Assembly (NCBI GenBank): GCA_043806035.1
Contig: JAZDHK010000005.1
Coordinates: 2,136-66,135 of the forward strand
Origin: an archaeon
Lineage (GTDB): Archaea; Nanobdellota; Nanobdellia; Woesearchaeales; UBA9642
Reading direction: 5' to 3'
DNA length: 64,000 nucleotides
A program made the translations under genes and the position numbers. Below the pieces are notes generated by a model that was not told where the DNA came from, made no database searches, and saw only the letters and a program-made list of their open reading frames with translations. This document shows positions 1-27,947 of the stretch, in pieces (within the stretch, counting starts at the first letter, position 1; each line of letters begins with the position of its first letter).

Positions 1-230
1 CGTATGCAGGTATCCTGCGCTTATTGTCGTGTACGCTGCGGTGTCGTTGATGAGCGTTGGCAGTGTGAGATTTCCTCCATCCGTGCCATTGCCTAATTGG
101 CCATACGAATTGTCTCCCCAGCACAATACTCTGCTGTCGTTTGTTCGAATGGCGCACGTGTGTCTTTCTCCCGACGTGAGAGTGTCTGGCCTGACGAGCA
201 TGCCGGTAATGTTTGCTGCGCCATCAATGT
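1..230 (-). repeat. RCC1-like beta-propeller block 4 (partial, first blades only; continues beyond the window)
   Basis: The translation ends ...GERHTCAIRTNDSRVLCWGDNSYGQLGNGTDGGN...AAYTTISAGY at nt 1. Confidence 0.6.
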
Positions 231-3200
231 ACCAGGTGTAGTTGTAGACGAGCTTTTCCTCGAAAGGATCTGTGGCGTTGCAGTATCCGTACAAGGTGTC
301 GCTGTTGTTTGCGGATGGTGTTGGGATGATGCTTGCCGATATCATGGTTGGCTTGATGTACGTGAGTGTGTAATTCCCCTCGTCAGACCATTCCTCGTTG
401 CTGTCGGAATCATTGCCGAGGCAGTTCCACGTGTACGTGTCAGCATAGGGCAGGGTGAATGTCCAGTTCGTGCTGTTGATGATGCCACCCACGGCAGTGG
501 CGTTCGTAGTGATGAGGTCGTTTGTGCTGTTCCAAATGGAGAGCGTGAGCGCTGAGCTGTCCGTGTCATCCGTGATGTTGCACATGAATGCGTGTGTTGG
601 CTGCGTGGTGTTCGTCTGGTTTGCGGGACTGACGAGCTGCACTTTCAACGTTAAGTTCAGGATGCTGACTGAGCGCGTGCTCGTTGACAAATGTCCTGCC
701 GTGTCGATGGCGTACGCAGTGTACGTTTGGTTGCCATACTCGAGATTCGTGAAGTTATGATAGAGTGTGAATTCTGTGTTGTTGTACGAGGCGTTGATTT
801 CTTCCCAGGAGAGCTCGCGTGCGTAGATGCGCAGCTCATCCAGACTGCCGTTGAATCCACCTCCTCCAGACCAATACGAACCAAGCCTCAAGTTTGTCGT
901 CTGATTATATATCATGGCTCCTGGGAGAGTAGTGGTGGTGATGAGATTACCATCTCGGTATCCTTTCAGCGTTCCGCTGGCGTTGATGGTAAATGCAATG
1001 TGGCACCACGTCTGTGCAGGGCAAACACCTGCATTTGTGTAAGTTGCATCATTGCTACTGTTCTTGACACCAAATGCAGTCACGTTGGTGGCAGTTACGC
1101 CATAGATTAGCCAGGTCCAGCTGGAGGGTGAGTTCATAAGCATTATAGGATACGCCTGTTCAGCAGAGGCGTTCGGAGTGATATTCCAGTAGATCCAGAA
1201 CTCGAGCGTGAAGGGTACTGTGACATATGGTGTGTAATTGGCGATTGCGACATCGTATGTTACATTCGTTGCCTCACCGCCGTTGCTGAACCATAACGAG
1301 TTGCCAAACTTGCCAGCGGAGAAAGAGAATCCGCTTCCTGTTGAATTGGTGAGGTTTTTCTGCCCTGTTGAATTGTCGTAGACAGTGGTGTCGTTGACGG
1401 CGTCGAAGTTCCAGTACGCGCCTAACGTGTTGTTCCAGTCGAAGAACGCTGACGTGTTCGAGTAGTCGGTAATGGTGGTGTTGAGATACGCGTACGTTGC
1501 TGTCGTCAGTTCATTGTCTGGTGGTGTGGGATTCTCCCAGGTGATGACGGGTGGCAGGGTGTGGTTTACTGAGAAGGAAGTGTTTGCGGTGTTGCTGTTG
1601 TTGCTCGTGTCGTTTGCCCAGAGTGTTAGGTTGTATTGGCCGAGCTGCGTAAGATTAAGGAATGTGAGGGTGACGTTGCTCACTGCCGTGCTCGAGCTGA
1701 AGAGCAGGCTGCCGTCAGGATAGGTGATGTTGAACACGACATCACTAATTCCTGTGCCATCAGTCGCGGACCAGTTGATGTAAATGCTCTCGCTTCCCGC
1801 CTCAAGTATGCTGCTGTTCTTCTGGATGGCCAGCGTTGGGGCGACTTGGTCGAGTATGTGCGTGACGCTGCTGTTCAGCCACCTGCTCGTGAGCGTCGTG
1901 TTCGTGGCCATGCAGGATAACGTCCAATTCTCTCCCAGGCTCGTGAACGCATTGCCCAGAGTAGAAACGAGCAACTCTTGCGCTGAGGGCCAGCCTGGAT
2001 AGAAGCTTGCGGTGTTGTTGATGGGTGTGGGATTGTACATGCTGGTGGTGTTGCCATTGCCAAGCTGACCGTAGTCGTTGACGCCCCAGCACAGTACTTG
2101 TGAGTCGTTTGTCCTGATGCCACACGAACGATACGCTCTTGCGCTCACGCTCAGGTATGCTGCGCTGTCGTTGATGGGTGCGGGATTGGGATTGGTTCCT
2201 CCGCTGCTGCCATTGCCAAGCCGTCCATATCCGTTGCTTCCCCAGCACATGATTTGTGAGTCGTTCGCCCGGACGGCGCAGGTATGACCATATCCTGCGC
2301 TCACTGTCAGATATGCTGCGCTGTCGTTGATAAGTTGCGGGTTGAGAGCATTGCCTCCTGTGCTGCCGTTGCCGGTTGCACCGTCGCTATTGGCTCCCCA
2401 GCATTTGACGCTACCGTTGATGAGAATGCCGCAGGCATGATACTCTCCAGCGCTCACGCTCAGGTATGCTGCGCTGTCGTTGATAGGTGCTGGATTGTAA
2501 TGGTTTGTTTGCGTACCATCTCCTAACTGTCCGTTGCCGTTTCTTCCCCAGCATAACACTCGTGAGTCGTTTGTTCGTATGCCACACGTATACTCAATTG
2601 CTGCCGTTATGGTGATGTATGCTGCAGTATCATTGATGAGTGTTGGGTTGTACATGTTGGTGGTGTTGCCGTTGCCAAGCATGCCGTAGTTGTTCCTGCC
2701 CCAGCAGAGTGCTTTGCTGTCGTTTGCGCGTATGCCGCACGTGTGATAATTTCCTGCGCCAACTAGACTGTATGCTGTATCGTTGATGGGCCAGGGGTTC
2801 TTGTGCTGCGTGTCTGTGCCGTCTCCGAGCGCACCGTAAGGATTATATCCCCAGCACAGCACTTGAGAATCATTGGCACGAATGCCGCATGTGTGGGTGT
2901 AACCTGCACTTATTGCAGTATAGTTTGCACTGTCGTTGATGGGTATGGGATTGGGACTAGTTCCTCCATCACTACCGTTGCCGAGCATGCCCCACAAGTT
3001 GCTTCCCCAGCACAGCACTTGCGAATCATTCGCGCGTATGCCACACGTATGATACGTGCCAGCACTCAGTGTTCCTGCCTTGAACACCACACCATTCATG
3101 AAGGCCGTGCTGTCATTGTACCACGTGTAGTTGTACATGACCTTTCCACCAGTAGGATGCGTTGCGTTGCAATAACCAAGAAGGTTGTCCGTGTGGTTGG

Positions 3201-6200
3201 CGAACAATGCAGGACTGATGCGTACGCTGATGACAGTTATTGGCGTGTAGTTTATCGTGTAATTCCCTTCACTACTCCAGGCAGTGTTGTCAAAACTGTC
3301 ATTGCCCAAGCAATTCCACGTGAAAACGTCAGGATGGGGGAATGCGTACGACCAGCTCGTGCTGTTGCTCACTCCTGCCAGTGTTGTCACATTCGTCTGC
3401 AACGTTCCTGAACTGTTCCACACGTACACCGTCAATGCCTTCACTTGATAGTCGTCGGTGATGTTGCACGCGAGTGCATAACTGTCGTTGGTCGTGTTCG
3501 TCTGGTTGGCCGGGCTGACGAGATGCACGACAGGGGCAATGTCTTCCGTTATCAGTGTGCTGCTGCTGTTGAGCCAGGACGTCACTTGGCTGTTCTGGTC
3601 TGATGCGCTGCACGACAACGTCCAGTTCTCTCCCGTCTCGGTGAAGGCGCTTCCGATGACGCCGACGAGGACTTCCTTGCCCGCGGGGAAGCCGGGGAAG
3701 TAGCTGGAGGCGTCCGTGATGGTGGTTGGGTTAAGCTTTTGTGTGGTGTCGCCAATTCCAAGTTGTCCCCAATTATTATATCCCCAACAGAGTGCTTGAC
3801 CGTCGTTTGCTCGCACACCGCAACTGTAGTGTGCTCCTGCGGTGATGTACCTATACGTTGCGGTGTCGTTGATAAGGGCGGGATTAAGTCTGTCTGTTTG
3901 TGATCCGTCTCCTACTGCTCCGTTATCGTTTTTGCCCCAACAGAGTGCCATACTATCGTTGGCTCGAATGCCACAGGTGTGCTGCCAACCAGCATTCACA
4001 TCAGTATACGCACTCGTGTCATTGATGAGTGTGGGGTTGAGCCGTTGTGTTGTTGTCCCATCCCCCAGAGCGCCTTCCGTATTGTTTCCCCAGCAGAGGA
4101 CTCTGCTGTCATTGGCTCGAATGCCGCATGTATGCCGTCCAAAATCCCCTCCTCCGGTCGAGACCAGTCTGTACCCTGCCGTGTCGTTGATGGGTGTGGG
4201 GTTTTCTCTTTGTGTTTGTGTTCCGTCTCCTAATTGACCATTAGTATTATGACCCCAGCAGAGTACTCTGCTGTCGTTGGCTCGGATGCCGCACGAGTGG
4301 ATGTATCCTGCGCTTACTGACATATACGCGCCGCTGTCGTTGATGAGTGTTGGATTTGTTTTTGGTGTGTCCGTCGTTCCGTCTCCCGCTTGACCGACAT
4401 TGTTTTGGCCCCAGCAGAGCACGCGAGAATCGTTTCGTATAGCACAGGTGTGCACGCGCCCACCATAGATGCTTATGTAGGGAGTAGTATCGTTGATGGG
4501 TGTGGGCGTCCACATGTTGGTGGTGTTGCCATTGCCTAATTGGCCATTATCATTGTCTCCCCAGCAGAGTACTCTGCTGTCGTTAGCTCGAATGCCACAC
4601 GTATGATAATCACCAGAGCTAATAGTGCTGTATGCGCTGTCGTCTGCTGTCAGTGTCGGATTGAGCTTGTCATTTGGAGCATCGCCATCACCTATTTGAC
4701 CATTTGCATTGTCTCCCCAGCATAATACTCTGCTATCGTTCGCTCGAATACCACAGGTGTGCATACGTCCTGCGCTTATTGTTTCTGCCTTGAACAACGC
4801 GTTCTGGTAGATGATGGTGTTGTTGTACCAGGTGTAGTTGTACAGGACTTTGAGGTTTGCCGTGTGGCTTGCGTTGCAGTAGCCGAACAAGTTCAGGAGC
4901 GTGTCTGCCGTCGGCGTGGGATTGATTCTGCTGCCGTTCATTTCCGGATAGCTGATGCAGTCGTTGTTGCTGCAGAAATAGCCTTCGTCGCATTGGCTGT
5001 CATTGAAGCAGTCATGCCACGTTCCTTCAAGGCAGTAGTCGAGGTTGCTGTTCTCATCGACATCGAGGGGAATGGTATCATTCTCGTAGCAGCTCCTGTC
5101 AAAGACGCAACTATTCGTGATGTTGCAGCACGCGCTTGTAGTATTTGTGAATCCGGGAAGCCCTGAGGAAGAGGCTTGCGCGTAGAATTCTGTGCTGTCA
5201 TCGCCGCAGCAGTTGCTGTTGTACGTGCCATCACTCTGGCTCATGATGTCCCAGCTGAAGGAGGTGCTGTTGAGGATGTAGCAGCTCGCTCCGTTGCAAG
5301 CCGTGCTTCCTACTGTTTCGTCGCACGTGCATTGGCTGGCATCATCTGTTGAGAGGCTCGCGCCAGGATACGCTGACGTCAAGTACGGGCAGTAGATGAC
5401 CCTGCCCACCACTGGGCTGTCGCTATAATCAAGGATTTGTGCAGCGATAGTGTTCTCGTTCGTCGTTCCCCACCAGTTGCTCGTCGCATTCTGGTCTTTT
5501 GTTGTTCCCGACATTATCCAATCGTACGTCCCTCCGAAGACGTTGTTGTTTAGGAACGTGAGATTCTGGTCGTTTGTCGAGCTCAATGGGTAGACGATGT
5601 TGAACGTGTTGTTCGTGATGTTGCTCTGCACGACGTAGCTCATGTAATTCTCGTCAGCCAGCTTGAGCACGATGCCGTTGTAGTTGTAACGTATTCTGCT
5701 ATTGTTGATGGTGATGCCAATCACGTAACCTGTGCTGTCATCGTAATAGACGCCCGTGCCGCTGTTGTTCTCTATCGTGATGTTGTTGAATGTGTAGTCT
5801 TGCGAGGGAACTCCTTCGAGATAGACGCCATATTCTGAGCTGTTGGTTATCGTGACGTGTTGGACAGTTAATGCGCCAACATCTCCATCGAACGAAAGCC
5901 CTCTCGTCTGGTTTGTCGTCCCTCCCTTGAATGTGCCTCCGCTGATCGTTGTGCCAAAATCGTGAACGATGACGCTCCTGTTGAAGCCGTACACGTTGCA
6001 GTTGGTGAGGGAAGAGGCACCGTCTGCGAGTATGCCTGTGCCCGTTCCTTGATCGCCGCCGTAGATCCAGTAGTTGTTGCAGTCGACGGCCGCCCCGCTA
6101 GTGACAGTGATGCCTCCTGCAGGACAGCCCAGTCCCGTATCATTGGAAAGGTTGCCCGTGAAGTTCGTGTCTGTCGTTATCGTGTCTCCGCAGCCCACGA

Positions 6201-9200: not shown

Positions 9201-12200
9201 TCTGGACCCACGTTCCGACATCAGCACTTCTGCTGCAGGCAGCAGTTTCTTTCAGCCAATCACTCCCATTACCTATGCTGCCCTGAATGCTGCTTTTCAT
9301 TATTTTGAAGTTGAAAAGCTCGTCAGTGGCTCCAATGCGCGTACTCAGGACACAGTTATTGTCTCCGTCATTGTCGACGTTCACCCACGCGGCAACGGTA
9401 TAATTGCTCAACGCGAGAGAAGAGGAATACGGCACTTCCACATATTCTTCTCCGCTGAAGTTGTACGCTCCACCAAACTTCCCTCCAGTAATGTCCATAA
9501 CGGGGCAGGAATCACAGGTCGCATTATTATCATTGCCCGAATAGTCACGTGCAAACGTATCATTTTCTCCATACTCTGAGAGGTTATCGAAGTGCACCAG
9601 CAACACAGTGTTGTCGTCTGCAGCAATAGGCGCGGACGTCCAGGGATAAATGGACGTGGTGTTAGTAATACTCAGGTTATACCTGAGAACGCTGGTGTCG
9701 AGCTGGGAAGCGTTCATGCTGCCGAAGAAACGCACGGTCGAGGGAAGCGTGCCATTCACGCTGATGTTCAAGTTCACTGAGGAAACCGTGGCATCATTCG
9801 CTGGGCTGTTCACGGTGATGTACGGAGGAATTCTGTACCCGTAGTAGTGGTAGCCGATGTCGAGAGGAGAGAGATCTCCCGACATGCCGTCGGGGTTCGT
9901 GCCGTAACCTGAAGAAGCAAGCGGAGATCCGCCGTAATAGCTGCCTGCATTGATGATAGGAGAGGACTGGTTCAAGTAATGACTGTTGCCGTTCGCAGCA
10001 ACAAGCGGATTGTCCGTGAGGTTGATCTCGTTGCTGTACGTCTGGTTCGTGCAATTGTCTTCTGTCTGGTTGTAGTATCTGCACGCAACGTTATAGTGTG
10101 CGTTGTAATCATGGACGTATGTGTCGAGCACCTCTGAGTCGTTGAAGCTTATCGAGGTGTTCGTGTTCAGGAAAAGATTATTCGTTATGCTGTTTTGGGG
10201 ATAGTTTGCTGATCCTATTTCTTCTATCGCAACGCCGAGTATGCCATCAAACGTGTTTGAAGCTACAATGAACGCTTCATAGTTAATCTGTTTTCCTTTC
10301 AGGCCGTCCGTGCAGTTGATGATGAGATTTTTTTTGAATTCAGTGATTGTATTGAAGTTGATGTAGCCATCGTTCTCTTTGAAGATGTTGTCGTATATGA
10401 TCATGCCTGCTGTTGGACCGTCCAAATATGGCCTACCGGAAGCGTAACTGACCTGCATCCACTCAAAATGATACGTTGTGGTGCTGTTGATGCTTCCCCA
10501 GTCACCTTTGCTTGGCGTTGCATTGCTTCCTGAAATATTCGCCCCCACTGTATTGTCGTTGATGGAGGTGAAGTACGTCAGTGTGCTGCTCGAATAGGTG
10601 TAATTGAGATTTGCCACGTTGATGCTGCCGTTCCCTGCTGGCGTGCTTGCTGACTTCACGATGCTTCCTGCCAGCAGTGTCCAGTTGCTAACGTATAACG
10701 TGCAGCCTGTGCAGAGGAACAGCGTGTCATTCCTTCCATAATAGACGAGGTTACTGGGCATGATTCTGTTGTAGGTGGTCAGATTGATTTGGAAAGGATA
10801 TGCTGGCGTTGTCTGGTATGCAGAGCTGTTGATGTATGTGAAATTCTGTGCGGCAATGGTCATTCCTGTCGCAAGATTCCAACCCACATTCTCAATGGAT
10901 GTGTTGATGATGCTCAAGCGCGCTGTCTGGTCTGCGCTGATCTCGTACTTTGCCTCTGCAACATCTCCATTCGTGATGTTGCTCAGGTTGGTGCTGAGAT
11001 TTCCCGCATCCTGCACGATGATATTTGCACTGCCGTTCTCTGTCCCGTTCATGCGTATGGTCTCATTGTCCCAGATGACCGTGCCATTGATAGTGAGGTT
11101 GTCGTTGAACCAGAGCGTGCTTCCACCGTCTCGTGAGATGAAGATTGCACCATTTGCCACGCTGGTTGTCCCATTGACGCGCAGTGTGCTGTTCTGCAAG
11201 GTGAGATTGCCTGTTATGTTCAATACGTTAACCGTGAGGTTGGTGTTCGTGAGGTTGAGTGCCGCGTCCGAGGAAATGGTGAGCGCGTCCACTGCCAAAT
11301 TGCTGTCTGCGCAGTTCGTGGCTTGGCTGAGCGTCTCATTTCCTGATGGCGAAGTGCATGCTGTAGTCGACGATTGCCTGGCATCCTTCACCGTGCTGCC
11401 ATTCTGGTCTATAGCCCATGCTGTGTAGTTGTACGTTCTGGATGCTATGCCTAACGTAACGTCCGTGAAGTTGTTCTTTAACTGGTAGAGTCCGCTGTTG
11501 TACGAGGCGTTGATCTCCTGCCATGACAATGTCCTATTCCAGATCTTCAGTTCATCAATGCTGCCGTTGAACCCGCAACAGTATGACCCGCTGCCGATGG
11601 TCACCCAATTTGGGTTTGTTCGGGACAGGCTGCAGTTGCCGTTCGCCAATGAATCGTTGAGTTGGCCGTTGACGTACACTCGCATGGATGTGCTGTTGTA
11701 CGTGCCGCAGCCGTAATACCACGTATCTGCCAGAAGAATAGAGTCACTCAGTCCTACGCTGTATTCCGTGCCAGCTCTTTTGCAGCCGAAGATGAGACTA
11801 TTACTTTCTTGCCAGATGAGCTGGGTGAAGTTGTCATTGTCCCCGTGCCTGTCTCTCAACAGCACTTGTGTCGTGCCGAGACCATCGTCGGCTCGCTTGA
11901 ACCAAAGGCAAATAGTCATTTCAGTGTAGTCCTCGAGCAGGTTCTCGTTTGACGAGACGTTCAGATAGGACGCGTTTCCTCCAGTGAAGGTTACGCCCTG
12001 GCCGAATTTTCCTTCTCCTATCGGCGAAGGGGTCATGTTGGTGAACGTGGCATTGTATCCATATGTTGAGTTGTCGAACACATGCGTGTCGTTGTAGTAT
12101 TCGAACGAATAATAGGCGACGAGACTTCTGTTCCAGTCGAAGAACGCTGACGTGTTCAGCAAGGAGGTGATGGTTGCATTCAGGTATGCCCACGCGGTCG

Positions 12201-15200
12201 TTATGTTCTCTCCCACTTCTGGTGTCGGGTCTTCCCAAGTGATGTTTGGCAAGGCATAGTATGCTATGCTATAATTTTGGCCCCAGTTGCTGTTCCCTAC
12301 AGAGTCATTCCCTTCGCAATTCCAGGTGAAGCTGCCTTCGTACGGGAGGGTGACTGTCCAGTTCGTGCTGTTGCTCGTCCCCCCTACGCTGACGGTTGTG
12401 CGGCTGATGTTCCACCACATACCTTCCTCCCAGATTCTGGCGCTTGAAAGATAGGATCTTAATGTCTGCCAGTCGGTAGAGTTCCAGCATTGCCAATACG
12501 TATCTGTATTGTGCTGATCTGATTCAGCACGCAATTGCAGAGAAGTTTGGTCCCAGCACAATTGCGGTAGAGAGAGATTCATTGTGGCTTCATTATCCTT
12601 CACCTGCCAAAGACTGGTGGATTGTGCCCTGGCTGGCTTTGAGTAATTTACGTACATGTAGCCGGGCTCCTCCTCGTCAGGTAGGTAAGTTCCATACGAT
12701 TCGTAATTTCCATCGTTTAGATTACCTCCGTCCGTCCACATTCCTGTGAGTGCATATGCTCCCGTAGCCAAGCCGCCGCAACTCGTAAGGGTGTTCGCGC
12801 TTTCCTGGTAACACCATTCAGATATGTCCGCTGCGACATTATCTCCCGTGCTGTTCCACACGTACAATGTCACGTTGGCTATTCCTGCATTGTCCGTGAT
12901 GTTGCACGTGAACGTGTTGTCTGCGGTGATTGTGCGGGTCTGGTTGGCTGGACTCACGAGAGTTACTGTTGGAGGGGCACCGTCTATGGTGATCGTTTGC
13001 GTGCTCTTCGTCATGTTGCCGTTCTCATCGGTGGCCCATGCCGTGTAGCTGTACGTGCCGTTGTCAAGCTGAGTGAAGTTGTTCTCCAGCCTGAAGAGGC
13101 CATTGTTGTACGAGGCGTTGATTTCCTGCCAGGAAAGCACCCGTTGATGGATGCGTGCTTCGTCGACAATTCCTTTAAAGGGGTAGCCGCTGCTGCCAAT
13201 TTTTACTGATGAATTTGAAGGGTACAGGTCTGTCATTCCTGCTGTTGCTGTCTGCTTGTCGCCATTGATGTAGACACTGACGTTGTAGCTCTCATTGAGG
13301 GTGAACACGTAATGATACCACGTCCCTACCGTTGCAGAGGCATCTGATATGACGCCACTCATTGTACTTGTTGAATTCCTGAAAGCAACGTTGGTTTTAT
13401 TGTCTGAAGCTAGGCCGTAGATGAGCCAAGAATACCAGGGGGTTTCCGAATGCCACTTGCCAAAGATGTAACTCGCGGTGCCCGTCTCGTTCGGCAGTAC
13501 GTCGTATTTGAACCATATCTCTACAGTGAGCGGTGCAGTTATGAATGTGCCGTTCGCGCCGGCTGCGGACAATGTGGCGCCGGTGCTGAAGTTGAGTCCT
13601 TTGCCATATCGTCCTGTGCTGATGTTGCTCGTGGAGAGTCCTGCTCCAAATGTTGCAAAATAATTGTTGCTCGAATTATCAAGTATGCCTGACGTGTTGT
13701 AGTACTCGAAATTCCAGTACGCGCCTAACGTGTTGTTCCAGTCGAAGAATGCGGACGTGTTCAGGCTGGCGTTCACCGTTGCGTTCAAGTATGCCCAGTC
13801 ATTGGTTGTGGTTGCTCCATTTTCTGGCGTTGGATACTCCCACGTGATGTTTGGCGGATTATACGGTGGGCCTATGGTTGTTGCCGAGCTGTTCAGCCAG
13901 GTGCTGTTAGAGAAGCCATCCTGTGCCTGGCAGGAAAGGATCCAACTATCACCATTCGTTGTGTGGCGGTTGTGCTGCATGCTTACGAACACTTCCTGTC
14001 CTGACGGGAAGCCAGGCATGTAGCTTGACGTGCTATTGACATAGACCGGACTATTACGCTGTGTGTTCGTGCCATCGCCAAGTTCATAGTAGTAGTTTCC
14101 TCCCCAGCATTTCGCCGTGCCGTTCAGCAACACGCCGCAAGTAGAGAATGAGTTAAATGCTGCACTATTATCCCCGCCAGCGTCTACAATCACATATGAT
14201 GCCGTGTCATCAATGAGCACTGGGGAATCCCGCTCTGTAGCGTCACCATGACCTCCTTCACCCACATAGTCAATTCCCCAGCATAATACTCTGCTGTCGT
14301 TTGCTCGAATACCGCAAGCATCAGTTATGCTTACTGTTATCCATGAATAAGCAGCAGTGTCAGTCGTCTGTTTCGGATTAGGTTCATTGCCGGTAGCCGA
14401 TCCAATACCCACTTGTCCCATGCTGTTATCTCCCCAGCAGAGCACTCTCGAGTCGTTTGCTCGAATGCCACACGTCACGCCAATCCCGTTACTAAAACTT
14501 TCAATAGTTATCATGGAGTACGCACTCGTATCATTAATGAGTGTTGGATTGTTTTTTTGTGTTGTGCTGCCATCGCCAAGTTGGCCATTACCATTCAATC
14601 CCCAACATAATACTCTGCTGTCGTTTGCTCTGATGCCACACGTGCTGTCTCCACCGACAGAGATGCTCGAGAATGAAGACGTAGTGTTGATGAGTGTCGG
14701 ATTAATTCTATCTGTATCCTCAGTGCCGTCTCCCAATTGTCCGTAGGTGTTGCTTCCCCAGCAGAGCACTCGTGAATCGTTGGCTCGGATGCCGCACGTC
14801 GTGCCCCATGTGTTTGGAGCACTAGGCCATCCGCCCACACCAACTTGTGTATACGCTGCCGTGTCATTAATGAGCGTTGGATTGAGCTTGTCTGTTGTCG
14901 TGCCATCACCTAACTGTCCACGTTGATTGTCTCCCCAGCATAATACTCTGCTGTCGTTTGCTCGTATGGCGCAGGTGTGTACGTTGCTTGCCGAGACCAT
15001 GAGATACGCGCTCGTATCGTTGATGGGTATGGGATTGTGGCTGTTGCCTCCGGTGCTGCCGTTGCCAAGCTGGCCGTACGTGTTGTCTCCCCAACACAGA
15101 ATGTATGAGTCATTCGCACGAATGCCACACGTATGGACGCCTCCGGTCGTTATGGTGTTTGCTTTGAATAATCTGCCTGAGGTGTTGAGTACATCATTCC

Positions 15201-17964
15201 TGTACCATGTATAGTTGTAGATAACTTTTGGTTCTTCAGACGAGTTCGTCGTGCCGTTGCAGTAGCCGTAGAGGTCGTCGGTGTCGTTCGCTGTTGAATT
15301 GGGGTTGATCCTGCTCGTGCTCATGTTCGCTTGCGATGCATCATTGAACGCATATGCCGTCTCGTTCCCGAACGTGAATTGTTGTACGTGCTTGCCCGCA
15401 GTGTGCACCTTCACTGTCCACGTTGCCGTTTCATTGCACGAATAGTCCTCGTACAGGTACGAGATGTGTTCGCTTCTGTTCGAGAAATCAGCGACGGGCA
15501 TCGTTTCTGTTTCCGTGACGTAGTAGGAATGCTCGGTGCGGTTCTCTGCCTTGCTGAACAGCGTCGCGTTGCCGCATGCGAGTGAGAGTATTTCGAGATC
15601 GTCTTCCGTTTCAGGATTATCATTGCCCTCCTCCAGATACGTGGTGCCGTTGATAGCTGCAATGCTCAAGTTACCCTCTCCTGACGTGTTGATGCTGACC
15701 TGCCACAGCCCTCCCACATACGGGTAGCTCTGCACGTTGAGGATGGTAATGCTAACTTCGTACGTCTGGTTGCTCAGCGAAGGAGTAATCCATGAGATGT
15801 AGTCAATCAACCCGTTGTTGTTCTCATCATAATACGAAACGCCCTCCACCTTTACTCGGGTATTGTTCACGAGCCAGTAGAGCGTGATGCTCTCCCGTCT
15901 CACATCTGGAATTGCCGTGTACGTGAAGATGTCCGTGTAGTGCACGTCTGAAGAAACCACGACTTGTTTCCTTCCTTGCACGAATGCTGTTTCCGTGCTT
16001 GTTGGCCCTTCCGTGTAGTATTCTACCTGGATGTGCTGGGCCTCTTCGTGAACGGTAATAGTTATGCTGTCGCTTGTATCCACTCGTGTTTCCTGTTCGG
16101 GAACGGAGAAGTCAGCAATCACATTGCCCGTGATGAGACCGTCCTCTGCAGATTCGGCAGGCGGAGCGCCTTCTCTCGTTATTTTCTCTTCAGGAATTTC
16201 TACTACTGTATTGTTGGTGATCTCTTTCGCAGAGAGATTGTATGCGAGCACAGGGATGGTGGTGGTGAAGTTCTGCACTATCTCCTCTGCCCGTATGTCT
16301 TCCACCCAGCGTACTGGTTTGTTGATGATGACCATTCTCGTGAGGTTGCGCAGGAAACTCGGCAGCGTCGCATTCGTTCTGTTCTGCGTGATGTTAATCA
16401 GGAAAACGTTGCTCTTCACGAGCGATTCGCCGTCAGTAGCATAGATGAACGTTGCATACTCCCCCTCCCGTCCAGAGAATGAGATAGATTCTCCGTGTAC
16501 CTCGACAGTGAGGTCTGTGCTCTTGGTGCTGAACACTAGCGGATCATGATCGGGGTCGAGGAAGTGCGTGCTGGCGTTGATGGTCAGTGTTTCATTCTCC
16601 TCGAGCGTGTAGTTGCCGACTTGTGCGATTTGCTCTGGCTCTCTGTTTCCTGCCGTGTAGGTGATGCTGTCGATGGTGATGCTGCCCTCTACCTCGATGT
16701 ACAGGAGTGCCTTGTCCAACATCAGACTGCATGCCTGGCCGCACACATTGTCAAAGGAGAACGGCACGAGTTCTGAAACATTGGTTGCATTGCTTACGTT
16801 CGTGCTCAGGTTCTGCTCAAGCTGGGTGATATTCTCTACGAGGGTTTCGTTCTTGATGAGCGTCTCATTCTCAACTTCGCTGCCAATCGTCACGTTTTCA
16901 GGCACGGTCTCGTTCAGCGTTGCGTTTGCGTCTGTGGTCTCATTCGGGATCAGTGTGGTGTTCTCCGTGATAGCTGTGGTGTTCTCTGGGATGATGGTTG
17001 CATTCTCTGCAGTTGCATTCACCAATTCATTCGCTGTTTCATTCATGCTTTCGTTCAACGTTGCATTCAAGGGATGCTCTTGCGTCTCATTCTGTGTCTC
17101 GTCAATGATGGGCTGGCTGATGTTTTCTTCAGTGAGGTTTTCTGCTAGCTCAAGGGGAGTCTCTGGCATGTCCTGCTCGGAAGATGGTTCTGTGCTGTTT
17201 TCGGAAACGTTGTCAGAGACGATTTCTTCAACAATCATTTCATCTGTGTGTGTGTCAAAAGAAGTATTGAGAGCAGTGTCTGCTGGTGTTTCTTGAAGTG
17301 GTGTTTCGGGAATTTGCTCTGCTGGTGTGCTTTCTTCCTGGACTGGCGGTTGCGTTGTTTCCTCGATGACGTCTTGAGGGACAGGTTCTGGTGCAGTGGC
17401 GGTTGTTATTTCTTCCGGCGGCAGTTCTTGCTCAGGAGGCGTTTCTTCAATGACTCTTCCCGTCAGTAAGTTCTGCTCGTTCTTCTGTTCTGTCGTGAAG
17501 AGCAACATGCGCTCTCCATCGGTGAGCAAGTAAATGCGTGCAGTGCCCTGGCCGTGTCCGGTGATGTGTAGTCCGCTGACGTTCGTGAGTCCAGTGTCAT
17601 ACGCAGTGTTCTCAGTGAATGTCTTGTTGATGAACAAGATTTTTTCTTGCGCAAACGTGAGCTTGCCGGTGATGCCCGCATAGTTGATCATGCCGACGAG
17701 GAGCAGGCCGAAGAGCAGGACGGTTATGGCAAGAAGCGGTGTGTGCCTGCTTTCAGTTCTTGGCTGACGCTTGAGATGCCTGATCTCTTCTTCTACTTCC
17801 TTGTAGTATTGTGTCTCTGGTTTGCCGTTGAAGAGCTTGTCGATGTGCTCTTGATAGTCCTGATAGGATATCTTTCGTTCATTGAGCAACTTGTTGAGTT
17901 TGCTCTGTACATGCAAGGTCTTTTCCTTTAGCTGTTCAAGCTTTCGTGCTCTACTTGCGTGCAT
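1..17964 (-). CDS. Giant membrane-anchored cell-surface or adhesin-like protein, partial (at least 5988 aa in window; the 3' end lies beyond the window start). Domain order: N-terminal ~75-aa charged/coiled segment, one TM helix, acidic NxS/T-rich linker, four 7-bladed RCC1-like beta-propellers, at least five LamG/ConA-like lectin domains, two parallel beta-helix (PbH1) regions, and recurring Ig-like 'SPANQTNTT..CNITDD..WNS' and 'SAFFDWNN' modules.
   Basis: Manual reverse-strand translation from ATG (plus-strand 'cat') at 17962-17964 gives MHASRARKLEQLKEK...HTPLLAITVLLFGLLLVGMINYAGI (TM). It continues in one frame with no stop down to nt 1. The ORF track lists no minus-strand ORF of at least 60 aa beginning near 17964, which is expected because the track appears to list only ORFs that end in a stop inside the window. 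Repeats such as HTCGIRANDSRVLCWGDNxxGQLGDG (RCC1 blades) and DExRIxxRxLSxxEInASYNnG (LamG C-terminus) are plainly readable. The plus-strand 'MAIRIVSPAQYSAVV...' ORFs are their antisense shadows. An in-frame TAG sits 22 codons upstream of the ATG. Confidence 0.85.
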   Translation of the reverse strand, partial: MHASRARKLEQLKEKTLHVQSKLNKLLNERKISYQDYQEHIDKLFNGKPETQYYKEVEEEIRHLKRQPRTESRHTPLLAITVLLFGLLLVGMINYAGITGKLTFAQEKILFINKTFTENTAYDTGLTNVSGLHITGHGQGTARIYLLTDGERMLLFTTEQKNEQNLLTGRVIEETPPEQELPPEEITTATAPEPVPQDVIEETTQPPVQEESTPAEQIPETPLQETPADTALNTSFDTHTDEMIVEEIVSDNVSENSTEPSSEQDMPETPLELAENLTEENISQPIIDETQNETQEHPLNATLNESMNETANELVNATAENATIIPENTTAITENTTLIPNETTDANATLNETVPENVTIGSEVENETLIKNETLVENITQLEQNLSTNVSNATNVSELVPFSFDNVCGQACSLMLDKALLYIEVEGSITIDSITYTAGNREPEQIAQVGNYTLEENETLTINASTHFLDPDHDPLVFSTKSTDLTVEVHGESISFSGREGEYATFIYATDGESLVKSNVFLINITQNRTNATLPSFLRNLTRMVIINKPVRWVEDIRAEEIVQNFTTTIPVLAYNLSAKEITNNTVVEIPEEKITREGAPPAESAEDGLITGNVIADFSVPEQETRVDTSDSITITVHEEAQHIQVEYYTEGPTSTETAFVQGRKQVVVSSDVHYTDIFTYTAIPDVRRESITLYWLVNNTRVKVEGVSYYDENNNGLIDYISWITPSLSNQTYEVSITILNVQSYPYVGGLWQVSINTSGEGNLSIAAINGTTYLEEGNDNPETEDDLEILSLACGNATLFSKAENRTEHSYYVTETETMPVADFSNRSEHISYLYEDYSCNETATWTVKVHTAGKHVQQFTFGNETAYAFNDASQANMSTSRINPNSTANDTDDLYGYCNGTTNSSEEPKVIYNYTWYRNDVLNTSGRLFKANTITTGGVHTCGIRANDSYILCWGDNTYGQLGNGSTGGNSHNPIPINDTSAYLMVSASNVHTCAIRANDSRVLCWGDNQRGQLGDGTTTDKLNPTLINDTAAYTQVGVGGWPSAPNTWGTTCGIRANDSRVLCWGSNTYGQLGDGTEDTDRINPTLINTTSSFSSISVGGDSTCGIRANDSRVLCWGLNGNGQLGDGSTTQKNNPTLINDTSAYSMITIESFSNGIGVTCGIRANDSRVLCWGDNSMGQVGIGSATGNEPNPKQTTDTAAYSWITVSITDACGIRANDSRVLCWGIDYVGEGGHGDATERDSPVLIDDTASYVIVDAGGDNSAAFNSFSTCGVLLNGTAKCWGGNYYYELGDGTNTQRNSPVYVNSTSSYMPGFPSGQEVFVSMQHNRHTTNGDSWILSCQAQDGFSNSTWLNSSATTIGPPYNPPNITWEYPTPENGATTTNDWAYLNATVNASLNTSAFFDWNNTLGAYWNFEYYNTSGILDNSSNNYFATFGAGLSTSNISTGRYGKGLNFSTGATLSAAGANGTFITAPLTVEIWFKYDVLPNETGTASYIFGKWHSETPWYSWLIYGLASDNKTNVAFRNSTSTMSGVISDASATVGTWYHYVFTLNESYNVSVYINGDKQTATAGMTDLYPSNSSVKIGSSGYPFKGIVDEARIHQRVLSWQEINASYNNGLFRLENNFTQLDNGTYSYTAWATDENGNMTKSTQTITIDGAPPTVTLVSPANQTRTITADNTFTCNITDNAGIANVTLYVWNSTGDNVAADISEWCYQESANTLTSCGGLATGAYALTGMWTDGGNLNDGNYESYGTYLPDEEEPGYMYVNYSKPARAQSTSLWQVKDNEATMNLSLPQLCWDQTSLQLRAESDQHNTDTYWQCWNSTDWQTLRSYLSSARIWEEGMWWNISRTTVSVGGTSNSTNWTVTLPYEGSFTWNCEGNDSVGNSNWGQNYSIAYYALPNITWEDPTPEVGENITTAWAYLNATITSLLNTSAFFDWNRSLVAYYSFEYYNDTHVFDNSTYGYNATFTNMTPSPIGEGKFGQGVTFTGGNASYLNVSSNENLLEDYTEMTICLWFKRADDGLGTTQVLLRDRHGDNDNFTQLIWQESNSLIFGCKRAGTEYSVGLSDSILLADTWYYGCGTYNSTSMRVYVNGQLNDSLANGNCSLSRTNPNWVTIGSGSYCCGFNGSIDELKIWNRTLSWQEINASYNSGLYQLKNNFTDVTLGIASRTYNYTAWAIDQNGSTVKDARQSSTTACTSPSGNETLSQATNCADSNLAVDALTISSDAALNLTNTNLTVNVLNITGNLTLQNSTLRVNGTTSVANGAIFISRDGGSTLWFNDNLTINGTVIWDNETIRMNGTENGSANIIVQDAGNLSTNLSNITNGDVAEAKYEISADQTARLSIINTSIENVGWNLATGMTIAAQNFTYINSSAYQTTPAYPFQINLTTYNRIMPSNLVYYGRNDTLFLCTGCTLYVSNWTLLAGSIVKSASTPAGNGSINVANLNYTYSSSTLTYFTSINDNTVGANISGSNATPSKGDWGSINSTTTYHFEWMQVSYASGRPYLDGPTAGMIIYDNIFKENDGYINFNTITEFKKNLIINCTDGLKGKQINYEAFIVASNTFDGILGVAIEEIGSANYPQNSITNNLFLNTNTSISFNDSEVLDTYVHDYNAHYNVACRYYNQTEDNCTNQTYSNEINLTDNPLVAANGNSHYLNQSSPIINAGSYYGGSPLASSGYGTNPDGMSGDLSPLDIGYHYYGYRIPPYITVNSPANDATVSSVNLNISVNGTLPSTVRFFGSMNASQLDTSVLRYNLSITNTTSIYPWTSAPIAADDNTVLLVHFDNLSEYGENDTFARDYSGNDNNATCDSCPVMDITGGKFGGAYNFSGEEYVEVPYSSSLALSNYTVAAWVNVDNDGDNNCVLSTRIGATDELFNFKIMKSSIQGSIGNGSDWLKETAACSRSADVGTWVQIVYVVHDGGYEIYVNGLRCDSGEFEGVPLLIAATNNLTIGECLDGSEFMSGSIDDVAVWDRNLSAEEVYYLYTMRNGAYYWMATANDSQLQNATGTYNFTLNASPNIVVSLDSPADASTNVKFTGDAASPFSCTAATAYSTVNDITLYAGTVGWQNVSYQSVSGFSANTTADFSNNINPVGLLMDKALSLGCYATNNASQSNWSTNKTVSGFSLGNFSQGTTLNGIANITIDDTRQAAINNGQTTFLQYFDYGPGDDFRANSGEVANYDGFSASLTYESMNGTAFLGCSNLCELRYPDSKNMDYGTVTFWFRKSYSGTGAFTLLQIYGSSIYHLTLSDINPSIMYAANVTLRHFKTVQTITANSGIASSGWHMYAVVWNKSLSDGEITLYRDGSKLVNSSGDLFPGADIGTLSVNISIGANMSLVNDAAGYYDEIAIYDAAYSSSVISQLYTNQSHTRFGNYSSQVFDIGSNASVWYTLSAATNDVGNITFQARNCDDAACNGENFTGPSGSNSTYYTDLTGQELNASTSRYFQYKAFFGREITSSSQPELYAVNITYLANDSVNCTPLSYGFNVLSTCSFSDQALIINGSLDIGSTGYLNLSNVTLIVNGNTRVRNGGTFKTVNGGSTIWQNGNLTINGTYILNRETLRMNGSSDGTYGITVQGSGTFNVSNSSNITNGETSTADYAFVVQSGATFNVQDSLISRAGYSDTTGSKGLEISAANAILARCNLSYIKSGIHLLGGSANLTGNNISMTTESYTGTMYGIDVTGGSATIQNNYISTDLNQTTHLLEVASNSNTFRNNTLAGVNSTILAFIPSRQHNTFDDMTGIITNNVAGTCIYSSAATNNTFTNFSFTDCNASRMLYLTGSGNYNLTLINPIGYNTSNITFSSAGATKLYVKWFADLFVGKLSGTAVSGATVLAYDNSYALFMNTTTDASGLITGQSFYEYSQNSTQVYPDNVTYFTNYSFIASRAGYATTHNKTWNLTQSQIGTGRINLSIVGCGDTITTDTNFTGNLSNDTGLGCPAGGITVTSGAAVDCNNYWIYGGDQGTGTGILADGASSLTNCNVYGFNRSVIVHDFGTTISGGTFKGGTTNQTRGLSFDGDVGALTVQHVTITNSSEYGVYLEGVPSQDYTFNNITIENNSGTGVYYDDSTGYVIGITINNSRIRYNYNGIVLKLADENYMSYVVQSNITNNTFNIVYPLSSTNDQNLTFLNNNVFGGTYDWIMSGTTKDQNATSNWWGTTNENTIAAQILDYSDSPVVGRVIYCPYLTSAYPGASLSTDDASQCTCDETVGSTACNGASCYILNSTSFSWDIMSQSDGTYNSNCCGDDSTEFYAQASSSGLPGFTNTTSACCNITNSCVFDRSCYENDTIPLDVDENSNLDYCLEGTWHDCFNDSQCDEGYFCSNNDCISYPEMNGSRINPTPTADTLLNLFGYCNASHTANLKVLYNYTWYNNTIIYQNALFKAETISAGRMHTCGIRANDSRVLCWGDNANGQIGDGDAPNDKLNPTLTADDSAYSTISSGDYHTCGIRANDSRVLCWGDNDNGQLGNGNTTNMWTPTPINDTTPYISIYGGRVHTCAIRNDSRVLCWGQNNVGQAGDGTTDTPKTNPTLINDSGAYMSVSAGYIHSCGIRANDSRVLCWGHNTNGQLGDGTQTQRENPTPINDTAGYRLVSTGGGDFGRHTCGIRANDSRVLCWGNNTEGALGDGTTTQRLNPTLINDTSAYTDVNAGWQHTCGIRANDSMALCWGKNDNGAVGDGSQTDRLNPALINDTATYRYITAGAHYSCGVRANDGQALCWGYNNWGQLGIGDTTQKLNPTTITDASSYFPGFPAGKEVLVGVIGSAFTETGENWTLSCSASDQNSQVTSWLNSSSTLITEDIAPVVHLVSPANQTNTTNDSYALACNITDDYQVKALTVYVWNSSGTLQTNVTTLAGVSNSTSWSYAFPHPDVFTWNCLGNDSFDNTAWSSEGNYTINYTPITVISVRISPALFANHTDNLLGYCNATHPTGGKVMYNYTWYNDSTAFMNGVVFKAGTLSAGTYHTCGIRANDSQVLCWGSNLWGMLGNGSDGGTSPNPIPINDSANYTAISAGYTHTCGIRANDSQVLCWGYNPYGALGDGTDTQHKNPWPINDTAYSLVGAGNYHTCGIRANDSKALCWGRNNYGMLGNGNTTNMYNPTLINDTAAYITITAAIEYTCGIRTNDSRVLCWGRNGNGQLGDGTQTNHYNPAPINDSAAYLSVSAGEYHACGILINGSVKCWGANSDGATGNGSTGGNALNPQLINDSAAYLTVSAGYGHTCAVRANDSQIMCWGSNGYGRLGNGSSGGTNPNPAPINDSAAYLSVSARAYRSCGIRTNDSQVLCWGVNDYGQLGNGNTTSMYNPTPINNTASFYPGWPSAQELLVSTLGNAFTSLGENWTLSCMATNTTLTSRWLNSSVTHILDQVAPTLAIQKNSSILEAGSESIYINWSATDGTGISDVVFNITYPDGSLLFSSSTAVSNVTLTFLNLTQLGQYNLTLWANDTSNNSNTANTSFSVNHTLPPVITWENPTPPDNELTTATYAYLNTTITDYSNTSAFFDWNNTLGAYWNFDAVNDTTVYDNSTGQKNLTNSTGSGFSFSAGKFGNSLWFSNGGEATNVTYDVAIANYTPYVTVPFTLEFWIYWNITPNASAEQAYPIMLMNSPSSWTWLIYGVTATNVTAFGVKNSSNDATYTNAGVCPAQTWCHIAFTINASGTLKGYRDGNLITTTTLPGAMIYNQTTNLRLGSYWSGGGGFNGSLDELRIYARELSWEEINASYNNTEFTLYHNFTNLEYGNQTYTAYAIDTAGHLSTSTRSVSILNLTLKVQLVSPANQTNTTQPTHAFMCNITDDTDSSALTLSIWNSTNDLITTNATAVGGIINSTNWTFTLPYADTYTWNCLGNDSDSNEEWSDEGNYTLTYIKPTMISASIIPTPSANNSDTLYGYCNATDPFEEKLVYNYTWYIDGAANITGMLVRPDTLTSGERHTCAIRTNDSRVLCWGDNSYGQLGNGTDGGNLTLPTLINDTAAYTTISAGYLHT
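2000..3075 (-). repeat. RCC1-like beta-propeller block 3 (7 blades)
   Basis: The run TCGIRANDSQVLCWGSN ... SCGIRTNDSQVLCWGVNDYGQLGNG was read directly. Coordinates are approximate. Confidence 0.7.
3700..4790 (-). repeat. RCC1-like beta-propeller block 2 (7 blades)
   Basis: The run HTCGIRANDSRVLCWGDNANGQIGDG ... SCGVRANDGQALCWGYNNWGQLGIG was read directly. The plus-strand shadow 'MAIIIVSPAEYSAVV' (4540..4725) is its antisense. Coordinates are approximate. Confidence 0.7.
14020..15190 (-). repeat. RCC1-like beta-propeller block 1 (7 blades: CGIRANDSRVLCWGxN...GQLGDG)
   Basis: Seven consecutive repeats of about 50 aa read in the translation. Plus-strand shadows include 14357..14746 and 14927..15214. 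Coordinates are approximate to about 50 nt. Confidence 0.7.
16810..17470 (-). repeat. Low-complexity acidic E/T/P/N-rich linker, dense in N-glycosylation sequons (NET/NAT/NES/NVS...)
   Basis: The translation reads EETPPEQELPPEEITTATAPEPVPQDV...NATLNESMNETANELVNATAENATIIPENTTAITENTTLIPNETTDANATLNETVPENVT. It is a stalk-like region between the TM anchor and the first globular domains. Confidence 0.6.
17670..17739 (-). other. Predicted single transmembrane helix (LLAITVLLFGLLLVGMINYAGI) anchoring the giant protein, N-terminus in the cytoplasm
   Basis: A hydrophobic stretch of about 23 residues follows a K/R/E-rich N-terminus. Everything downstream is NxS/T-rich and therefore predicted to be extracellular. 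Confidence 0.6.
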
Positions 17965-18187
17965 GTTCCCTCTTTCTTCTGGAACGTTGATAGACTGTCC
18001 AGATGGTCCGTTCGTTTCTGTTGAGGAGAATGGCTATTTCCTTGTACGTGTAGCCTCGCTTGTCCTTGAGAAATTCGACTATTGCCTCAAGCACTTTGAG
18101 GGTTCGGTCCTGGAAGATGTAGGAGGGGAAATTGACGTAGTCCGGGAGTTCTTTTTTTCGCTGTTCGTTACTGTCTTTTGTCGTCAC
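17951..18187 (-). CDS. Small HTH DNA-binding protein (LuxR/GerE- or sigma-70 region-4-like helix-turn-helix), 78 aa. Its last 14 nt overlap the start codon of the giant gene.
   Basis: ORF track protein MTTKDSNEQRKKELP...LKVLEAIVEFLKDKRGYTYKEIAILLNRNERTIWTVYQRSRRKREHARK. Its TAG stop at 17951-53 lies out of frame inside the first codons of the giant ORF (ATG 17964). A TATA-like box sits at 18231-18238 upstream. Confidence 0.6.
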   Translation of the reverse strand: MTTKDSNEQRKKELPDYVNFPSYIFQDRTLKVLEAIVEFLKDKRGYTYKEIAILLNRNERTIWTVYQRSRRKREHARK

Positions 18188-18214
18188 ACGCTCAGGCTAC
18201 ACTCATTTTTCTCG

Positions 18215-18226
18215 TACATTGTAAGT
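18215..18226. promoter_or_regulatory. Copy 1 of the 12-mer TACATTGTAAGT, lying between the TATA box (18231-38) and the HTH start codon (18187). Candidate operator.
   Basis: Exact 12-mer, repeated at 18291-18302 (direct) and 18332-18343 (inverted). Confidence 0.45.
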
Positions 18227-18290
18227 ATCATTTATAAAGTTTTCTTGTCTAATTATAGAGAAAAATGTGTGTATGAGCACAATTATATTT

Positions 18291-18302
18291 TACATTGTAA
18301 GT
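18291..18302. promoter_or_regulatory. Copy 2 of TACATTGTAAGT (direct orientation)
   Basis: Exact match. It forms an inverted-repeat pair with copy 3, separated by 29 bp. Confidence 0.4.
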
Positions 18303-18331
18303 GAAGATTAAGATAACATAAAGGAAAAGAT

Positions 18332-18343
18332 ACTTACAATGTA
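18332..18343. promoter_or_regulatory. Copy 3 of TACATTGTAAGT (inverted: ACTTACAATGTA)
   Basis: Exact reverse complement of the 12-mer. Confidence 0.4.
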
Positions 18344-18443
18344 GGTATTCTTTTTTTATTTTTCCGTCGCATCCACCTTTCCATATTGGTGAAGAAAACA
18401 CGAGAAAAATGGTTTAAATCTCCGTGCAAGCACAGCAGAAAGT

Positions 18444-18451
18444 TTATAAAC
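18444..18451 (+). promoter_or_regulatory. TATA box (TTTATAAA) about 24 bp upstream of tRNA-Asn
   Basis: The motif sits in the sequence gtttataaacc, 24 nt before the tRNA 5' end at 18475. Confidence 0.45.
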
Positions 18452-18474
18452 CATTCCTGAATTCTGAGCAGTGT

Positions 18475-18589
18475 GCCTCCGTAGCTTAACGGTGGAGCGT
18501 GCGGCTGTTATCCTTGCTGCGTTTGCACAAAAAAAAACACGGCAGGGCAAGTGACCGCAAGGTCACCGGTTCGAACCCGGTCGGAGGCG
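18475..18589 (+). tRNA. tRNA-Asn (anticodon GTT) containing an intron of about 43 nt at the canonical 37/38 position. The intron includes a 9-A run.
   Basis: Hand-folded cloverleaf. Acceptor GCCTCCG/CGGAGGC, D-arm GCT-TAACGGTGG-AGC, anticodon stem TGCGG/CCGCA with loop CTGTTAT, T-arm ACCGG-TTCGAAC-CCGGT, discriminator G. The antisense ORF 18356..18550 is a shadow. Confidence 0.7.
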
Positions 18590-18603: not shown

Positions 18604-18707
18604 GAGCCCGTAGCTTAGCCTGGTGGAGCATCCGACTGATAAAAACGGCCGGTAAACTGGTCGATTGTCGTTTCGGAAGGTCGCGAGTTCAAATCTCGCC
18701 GGGCTCA
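18604..18707 (+). tRNA. tRNA-Ile (anticodon GAT) containing an intron of about 30 nt
   Basis: Acceptor GAGCCCG/CGGGCTC plus A, anticodon stem TCCGA/TCGGA with loop CTGATAA, T-arm GCGAG-TTCAAAT-CTCGC. The antisense ORF 18508..18708 begins 'MSPARFELATF', the classic tRNA antisense translation. Confidence 0.7.
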
Positions 18708-27896: not shown

Positions 27897-27947
27897 GCAC
27901 TAAGGATCGCCTATACCTATATAAATCATGCTCTTCTTCCAGGCAGC

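Follow-up and report, generated by a model that had tools for sequence, protein, structure and literature searches.

The giant gene and its locus

The stretch of DNA considered here (64,000 nucleotides, positions 2,136 to 66,135 of contig JAZDHK010000005.1 in the woesearchaeal assembly GCA_043806035.1; hereafter the window) begins with part of a giant gene for a putative modular surface protein. The gene lies on the minus strand within a stop-free frame of 6,011 codons (window positions 18033 to 1), of which the ATG at 17964 is likely the first plausible start, so that the first 5,988 codons (1-17964) fall within the window. Its C-terminal end lies beyond the left edge of the window and, because the frame leaves at position 1, the gene is absent from the list of complete open reading frames (ORFs). 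An earlier interpretation made from the letters of the window, here called the sequence-only reading, had recognised the frame, and its strand is corrected here to minus. The encoded residues are identical to residues 1-5988 of P0125 (P-numbers are labels of related proteins), which was returned by an exhaustive profile search and corresponds to NCBI entry MFH1173689.1, a still partial protein of 6,700 amino acids (aa) encoded on a 71,448-bp contig and titled 'MAG: LamG-like jellyroll fold domain-containing protein, partial [archaeon]', where MAG stands for metagenome-assembled genome. The giant gene is real and already deposited. The public contig stops 2.1 kb left of the window, within the next cassette, so the gene is incomplete there too. 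Named homologues come nearly all from Woesearchaeota, Nanoarchaeota or Pacearchaeota. The possibility that collapsed repeats had produced the gene as an assembly artefact was considered and rejected, since the repeated copies differ too much to have been collapsed and no stop interrupts the frame over 18 kb. Residue numbers below start at codon 18033-18031, P0125 numbering being lower by 23.

Module order from N- to C-terminus

All modules are encoded on the minus strand. The protein starts with a helical head of ~75 aa, presumed to be cytoplasmic, and a single hydrophobic anchor, HTPLLAITVLLFGLLLVGM, identified by a hydropathy scan (17671-17964); the head is kept in P0001, P0028, P0033 and other relatives. 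An acidic, Pro/Glu/Thr-rich linker (16774-17466), recognised from its sequence, is dense in N-glycosylation sequons (N-X-S/T, where X is not Pro) with a peak of 27 per 250 aa, and leads to a conserved all-beta N-terminal domain (15319-16401) delineated by a family profile and an AlphaFold2 (AF2) model. Propeller unit 1 (13858-15321) then comprises a pre half (YGYCN..YNYTWY), a seven-blade RCC1 propeller and a post half (W.LSC..WLNSS), and is followed by LamG cassette 1 (12964-13866), with its P.ITWE / NTSAFFDWN / SWQEINASYN frame, an Ig-like domain of the LVSPANQT type (12253-12972) carrying a Trp/Cys-rich insert of ~140 aa (WCYQESAN...), and LamG cassette 2 (11356-12261). The central part holds an uncharacterised beta-rich region (9754-11358), the divergent LamG domains 3 (8998-9456) and 4 (7861-8286), a second uncharacterised beta-rich region (6154-7536), which is related to the first by dot plot and contains a weak CarboxypepD_reg-like stretch, a right-handed beta-helix region (5539-6036, aa ~4000-4165; Beta_helix, PF13229, 34.9 bits, cutoff 25.9) and a Cys-rich module (4924-5346). 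Propeller unit 2 (3526-4938; pre half, seven blades, post half) is separated by an LVSPANQT-type Ig-like domain without the insert (3238-3534) from the likewise complete propeller unit 3 (1834-3231), after which come a spacer of a second, Ig/PKD/fn3-like type (1546-1845; INWSATD...LWANDTSNN; all matches sub-threshold), LamG cassette 5 (640-1563), the third copy with the conserved frame motifs, another LVSPANQT-type Ig-like domain (349-648), and the start of propeller unit 4, with its pre half and first blade (1-348). P0125 completes this propeller to seven blades and continues beyond the window with an Ig-like domain, an insert-bearing Ig-like domain and the pre half of a propeller unit 5. An Ig-like cassette measures ~100 aa, a LamG cassette ~300 aa and a propeller unit ~470 aa, and the order of the cassettes is combinatorial rather than a plain tandem array of one large block.

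The Ig-like, LamG and RCC1 architecture proposed in the sequence-only reading held for the LamG and RCC1 modules, which score above the Pfam cutoffs, and stayed sub-threshold for the Ig-like domains. Five Laminin_G_3 (PF13385) domains exceed the gathering score (E = 1.7e-66 over three stretches and 3.8e-45, from the two halves of the protein; E = 5.3e-25 for domain 3 and 4.7e-9 for domain 4), and the Ig-like call relies on Big_7 (PF17957) matches of 20.9-21.6 bits, below the cutoff of 24.1. Searches of the two beta-rich regions with Beta_helix and against Pfam, NCBIfam and PDB sequences gave no match; the region at 9754-11358 is possibly a beta-helix. Pfam, NCBIfam and PDB sequence searches gave no match either for the Cys-rich module or for the Ig insert. 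The insert also occurs at aa ~6490-6640 of P0125 and aa ~1935-2075 of P0001, and adds a further instance of domain nesting to that of the propellers.

Beta-helix (pectate lyase fold) and LamG/ConA-like modules are common in glycan-active proteins, and such a module set could belong to an extracellular scaffold for the degradation or capture of polysaccharides, with a nutritional role rather than one in cell-cell attachment. The Beta_helix match is generic, however, and no glycoside hydrolase, lyase or peptidase family was detected in the 5,988 aa, which makes a scaffold of this kind very improbable.

Recurrence of the junction motifs

The sequence-only reading had reported that short junction motifs recur three to four times. 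Every motif that it quoted is present, each three times within the window: LVSPANQT, CNITD and [VI]WNS[ST] at aa 1692/4838/5800 and neighbouring positions, NTSAFFDWN with AYWNF[ED] at aa 1425/1960/5526, and SW[QE]EINASYN at aa 1634/2170/5742. A fourth LVSPAN copy lies just outside the window, in P0125. A self-comparison of the protein by tiled, self-masked BLASTP with 120-aa tiles (plain whole-protein BLAST returned the diagonal alone) gave clear off-diagonals, with 477 off-diagonal high-scoring segment pairs at E <= 1e-6, so that the similarity extends well beyond convergent short matches.

Nested RCC1-type propellers

The propellers match Pfam RCC1 (PF00415) over 14 stretches with E = 2.4e-95 and WD40_RLD (PF25390) with 435 bits against a cutoff of 150, each blade being a repeat of ~51 aa. 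The earlier count of seven blades per propeller was borne out by the [LKM]CWG motif, found 7 + 7 + 7 times plus once in the propeller cut at the window edge, this fourth propeller having seven in P0125. The blade cores are near-identical, as had been claimed: the exact 14-residue core CGIRANDSRVLCWG is found in 8 blades, and 17 of the 22 blades lie within two mismatches of it. In the AF2 model of unit 2, the propeller has ~27 strands and a block-mean predicted local distance difference test (pLDDT) score mostly between 50 and 91. Foldseek superposes it on UVR8 (E = 2.9e-31, template modelling (TM) score 0.86, root-mean-square deviation 2.5 Å) and also on RCC1, HERC2 and the extracellular propeller of plant ACR4. 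The blade core, C-G-I-R-A-N-D-S-R-V-L-C-W-G, combines two Cys nine residues apart with an NDS sequon (for example at window positions 14408-14481), which suggests one disulfide staple and one glycan per blade. Given the presumed extracellular location of the propellers, guanine nucleotide exchange factor activity is unlikely.

The relationship between the propellers and their flanks was addressed with a hidden Markov model (HMM) of 106 positions obtained by concatenating the two halves YGYCN..YNYTWY and GENWTLSC..WLNSS. This pre+post HMM detected contiguous domains of 85-100 aa, running across the junction, in 17 proteins without CWG blades (for example P0112, independent E-value (iE) = 6e-12, and P0075, iE = 8e-10), and split halves only in four blade-bearing proteins, namely the giant protein, P0001, P0003 and P0233. 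By these profiles, each whole propeller appears to be inserted into a single host domain of ~100 aa that is contiguous in relatives.

Sequon density

Over its 5,886 aa the ectodomain carries 345 sequons (5.9 per 100 aa), against 130 +/- 10 expected from composition-preserving shuffles (z = 22), and nine cytoplasmic ORFs of the same window have 0.23 per 100 aa. In related ORFs from metagenomes the density is 3-6 per 100 aa. The junction motifs are themselves largely sequons (NQT, NTT, NIT, NSS, NTS, NAS, NDS, NDT). Very heavy N-glycosylation of the giant protein is predicted.

Age of the duplications

Pairwise identities between copies are 36-42% (aa) and 46-52% (nucleotide, nt) for the LamG cassettes, 51-55% (aa) and 55-57% (nt) for the propeller units, and up to 56% (aa) and 60% (nt) for the Ig-like domains. 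Where two copies share the same residue, the fraction of identical codons is 0.42-0.45 in the propellers, 0.46-0.53 in the LamG cassettes and 0.58 in the Ig-like domains. Since the gene's own codon usage leads to an expectation of 0.40-0.42, synonymous sites are close to saturation. The identity between blades is 52-54% in comparisons inside one propeller, between equivalent blades of separate propellers and between blades at non-equivalent positions, blade 7 being the only one that stands out.

A metagenome scan identified 22 contigs with the same LamG cassette at 32-39% identity, and an alignment showed that all three LamG motifs are kept in 17 metagenome loci. The motif block ..LS.EEINASYNNGLY.L.HNFT.., which includes EINASYN, is conserved in these loci though it was not used to select them. 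The three intragenic LamG copies are 53/20/59% identical among themselves over N-edge, core and C-edge, and 51/17/57% identical to 12 non-redundant foreign metagenome copies; the similarity among the copies within the gene is no greater than their similarity to those on unrelated metagenome contigs. Since the motifs are conserved in distant homologues and the core is variable, the motifs are the frame of the module and not scars of recent duplication. The LamG cassette thus has conserved edges around a hypervariable core, and the recurring cassettes go back to old duplications and to the shuffling of modules that also occur in a paralogue (see below) and in many other DPANN proteins.

Recombination and size variation

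The sequence-only reading had taken the cassettes as products of recent intragenic duplication and had described such genes as prone to recombination and to phase or size variation between strains. The cassettes do recur, and the longest exact direct repeat, 38 nt (1409-1446 and 13712-13749, encoding FFDWNNTLGAYW), lies in LamG cassettes that are otherwise ~51% identical in DNA. There are 16 exact repeats of at least 20 nt, all at motif cores, and the 94 repeated 20-mers exceed the 4.3 +/- 3.8 expected from 30 synonymous-codon shuffles, in which the longest repeat was 29 nt. The somewhat raised codon identity of the Ig-like copies (0.58 versus 0.40) also points in this direction, as does the end of the public contig within the next cassette, of the kind left by assembly breaks that repeats or strain differences induce. 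Against a recent origin stand the DNA identity of just 46-60% among copies, the near-saturated synonymous sites and the LamG copies that are as far apart as they are from those of other organisms. No DNA tandem repeat was detected by Tandem Repeats Finder (TRF) in 1-18500, no simple-sequence tracts typical of phase variation are present in the giant gene, and a gapless repeat finder returned families at only 60-82% identity. The collections searched contained no strain-level relatives, the metagenome scan giving only the distant relatives described above. It is therefore distinctly unlikely that the cassettes were duplicated recently and that the gene is a hot spot of recombination, its size or phase differing from strain to strain: duplication of cassettes stands, 'recent' does not, and phase variation found no support in the repeats. 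The excess of exact patches, together with the contig end in the next cassette, means that rearrangement or micro gene conversion may have happened on rare occasions; at the motif cores, a plausible source of the patches is either micro gene conversion from time to time or a codon constraint specific to the site.

The N-terminal domain family and a second giant protein

The N-terminal domain (residues ~545-905) is the most widely shared part of the protein, about 100 of 116 first-round matches aligning there. It belongs to a family of domains of ~330 aa with the motif LSNQTYEV..ILNVQSYP.VGG.W, situated near the protein's N-terminus behind the membrane anchor. A profile built from 21 sequences retrieved 2,875 cluster representatives at E <= 1e-3, and 1,112 at 1e-30, among 1.84 billion (clusters at 50% identity), and the alignment has 28 invariant columns. 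The domain usually lies within the first 100-900 residues, and up to ~1,850 in some, of proteins ranging from 354 to 7,665 aa with very varied architectures. It has no Pfam, NCBIfam or PDB sequence match. Its AF2 model is all-beta (pLDDT 79.5); Foldseek matches in the PDB to flavivirus E, MSCRAMMs, AgI/II and an S-layer protein had TM scores of at most 0.2 and were rejected as not meaningful.

P0001 (NCBI MFH1173958.1) is encoded on a different contig and, because its accession is only 269 away from MFH1173689.1, is read as a further giant protein, probably a paralogue from the same MAG; on the same proximity, the view of P0001 as an orthologue from another organism was dropped. It shares the head, the N-terminal domain, two nested propellers, the LVSPAN Ig-like domains and the Ig insert, lacks the LamG/beta-helix block, and has a different cassette order.

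The protein could also be a structural component of the envelope, an S-layer-like coat or sheath in which the repeats build a long glycosylated fibre or lattice. The heavy glycosylation potential would suit such a role, and the weak N-terminal domain matches include the S-layer protein 7ptp, at a TM score that is not significant. S-layer proteins, however, are usually far smaller, highly expressed lattice formers, and hypervariable LamG cores in a conserved frame resemble diversified binding sites. A differently arranged paralogue is probably present in the same genome, and the architectures and sizes in the family are very varied. On this balance an envelope lattice is unlikely.

The overlapping helix-turn-helix gene

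A small gene of 78 aa with a GTG start (17951-18187, minus strand) encodes a helix-turn-helix (HTH) protein, which matches HTH_23 with 25.8 bits against a cutoff of 24.6 and resembles Sigma70_r4_2. Its stop overlaps the ATG of the giant gene by 14 nt in a different frame, and the two genes are probably co-transcribed. Among the 245 relatives sampled, eight (P0117 and P0092 are examples) have two to four homologous HTH modules at the extreme C-terminus, where a hydrophobic stretch and a run of Lys residues precede them. The pattern looks like fusion or fission linking the surface protein with the HTH.

This link raises the idea of a device for contact sensing or signalling, in which the giant protein forms the outer part and its ectodomain reports contact with a host or surface to cytoplasmic HTH DNA-binding modules. 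In such a trans-envelope contact sensor, which is quite unlikely on present evidence, the family would be more than a passive adhesin: hypervariable LamG cores and nested propellers would bind the host surface, and the signal would reach sigma-70-region-4-like HTH modules, which in some members would follow a C-terminal membrane segment as a fusion and in the present case would be split off as the small overlapping gene. The overlap of the HTH gene with the giant gene's start codon and the eight family members with C-terminal HTH modules speak for a sensor. The fusion is nevertheless confined to those few sampled relatives, whose hydrophobic stretches near the C-terminus are short and did not reach the threshold of the hydropathy scan; the giant protein's own C-terminus lies outside the known sequence, and the upstream HTH gene may be an ordinary transcriptional regulator of the operon. 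If true, the sensor would be an archaeal transcription-factor system that is tethered to the membrane and coupled to the attachment of an episymbiont.

Neighbouring genes

Two tRNA genes of 115 and 104 nt (18475-18589 and 18604-18707, plus strand), missed by ARAGORN and found with Rfam at 53.6 and 58 bits, sit divergently upstream of the giant-gene operon, and both probably contain introns, fitting archaeal tRNA introns. At 21227-24322 (plus strand) lies an archaeal Hel308/Ski2-like helicase gene split by an intein with a LAGLIDADG homing-endonuclease domain, and the neighbours also include NMD3 and diphthamide synthase. Taken with the tRNAs and the named homologues, these genes point to a DPANN-type archaeal host. 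A single ORF at 27381-30035 (plus strand) combines GATase_7, Asn_synthase (asparagine-synthase-like) and Diphthami_syn_2 domains and may be a fusion or a mis-joined ORF.

Likely role and comparison with known systems

The giant protein is probably an N-anchored, glycan-binding, adhesin-like surface protein of a DPANN-type archaeon, modular in build and shaped by old duplications. Its one N-terminal hydrophobic segment would hold it in the membrane with the short helical head in the cytoplasm, and the acidic linker and N-terminal beta domain would carry the modules away from the cell. The long chain of putative binding modules would then comprise at least four RCC1-like propellers with seven blades each, five jelly rolls of the LamG/ConA-like kind and Ig-like spacers, along with one to three beta-helix regions and the Cys-rich module. 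This chain would serve attachment to the host cell or to glycan surfaces, each LamG core or propeller face offering a different binding specificity. The attachment role is proposed because of the domain families present and of the DPANN literature, in which LamG-rich and giant surface proteins are probable host-attachment factors (PMC5498576; PMC10266531). Propellers in general evolve by amplification followed by diversification (bioRxiv 10.1101/2023.11.21.568195).

Several points weigh against this assignment. Topology, localisation, glycosylation and adhesion or binding are inferred, where architecture, homology, duplication age and sequon enrichment are read directly from the data. About one third of the protein is without family assignment (aa ~2226-2760, 3400-3960 and 4230-4366). 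The nesting is drawn from sequence profiles only, the pre and post halves having a pLDDT below 50 in the AF2 model. The modest excess of short exact DNA patches indicates that the copies are not evolving fully independently. Beyond the known sequence, there could be a C-terminal domain with an enzymatic, anchoring or signalling function.

The closest parallels to a giant adhesin of this kind are other DPANN giants, the LamG proteins of Mancarchaeum Mia14 and the nanohaloarchaeal SPEARE proteins SVXNc_0300 and BNXNv_0298, which likewise belong to DPANN-type organisms, span thousands of residues, are membrane-anchored with a huge ectodomain, contain multiple LamG, Ig-like and beta-propeller modules and have a proposed role in host attachment (PMC5498576, PMC10266531). 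In contrast to these, the propellers described here are of the RCC1 rather than the WD40 type, and, in place of a Sec signal peptide, the anchor is an N-terminal segment that looks uncleaved and follows the presumed cytoplasmic head. The SPEARE type is defined by a giant membrane-anchored ectodomain and a C-terminal VirB4/TraG-like ATPase (PMC10266531). The giant protein has the size and the anchor of that type, a likeness in described architecture; no VirB4/TraG-like ATPase or protease domain was found in the 5,988 residues scanned, the 712-aa extension of P0125 having been checked by motifs only.

Like RCC1, UVR8, the RCC1-like domains of HERC2 and the 'crinkly' propeller of ACR4, the latter also extracellular, the propellers consist of seven ~51-aa repeats, and giant genes of the RCC1 type in Oscillospiraceae show that RCC1 repeats build giant bacterial proteins too. 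Compared with known RCC1-like propellers, the blades are unusually alike (52-54%), with a near-fixed core holding two Cys and a sequon, and each propeller appears to be inserted in a small beta domain and alternates with other modules instead of forming a pure RCC1 array. The use of Ig-like spacers to project lectin-type ligand-binding modules from a giant cell-anchored protein is shared with repeat-rich bacterial adhesins such as MpAFP/MpIBP RII and MSCRAMMs (PMC4083281; PMC8092209). Those proteins have near-identical tandem DNA repeats and known copy-number variation, whereas the copies described here are 46-60% identical in DNA and form no detectable tandem repeat. On the whole, the giant protein is fairly ordinary for its class, which is already known, and only a few of its details are unusual.

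The tiny DPANN archaea are thought to depend mainly on giant surface proteins for host recognition and attachment, and almost none of these proteins has been dissected. The locus provides a domain map of one such protein, in which the hypervariable LamG cores are candidate determinants of specificity and repeated motifs alone imply neither recent duplication nor phase variation. It also documents complete RCC1 propellers that appear to sit inside a small host domain, and reveals a recurrent link to HTH modules as well as an N-terminal domain family that lacks annotation and numbers thousands of members.

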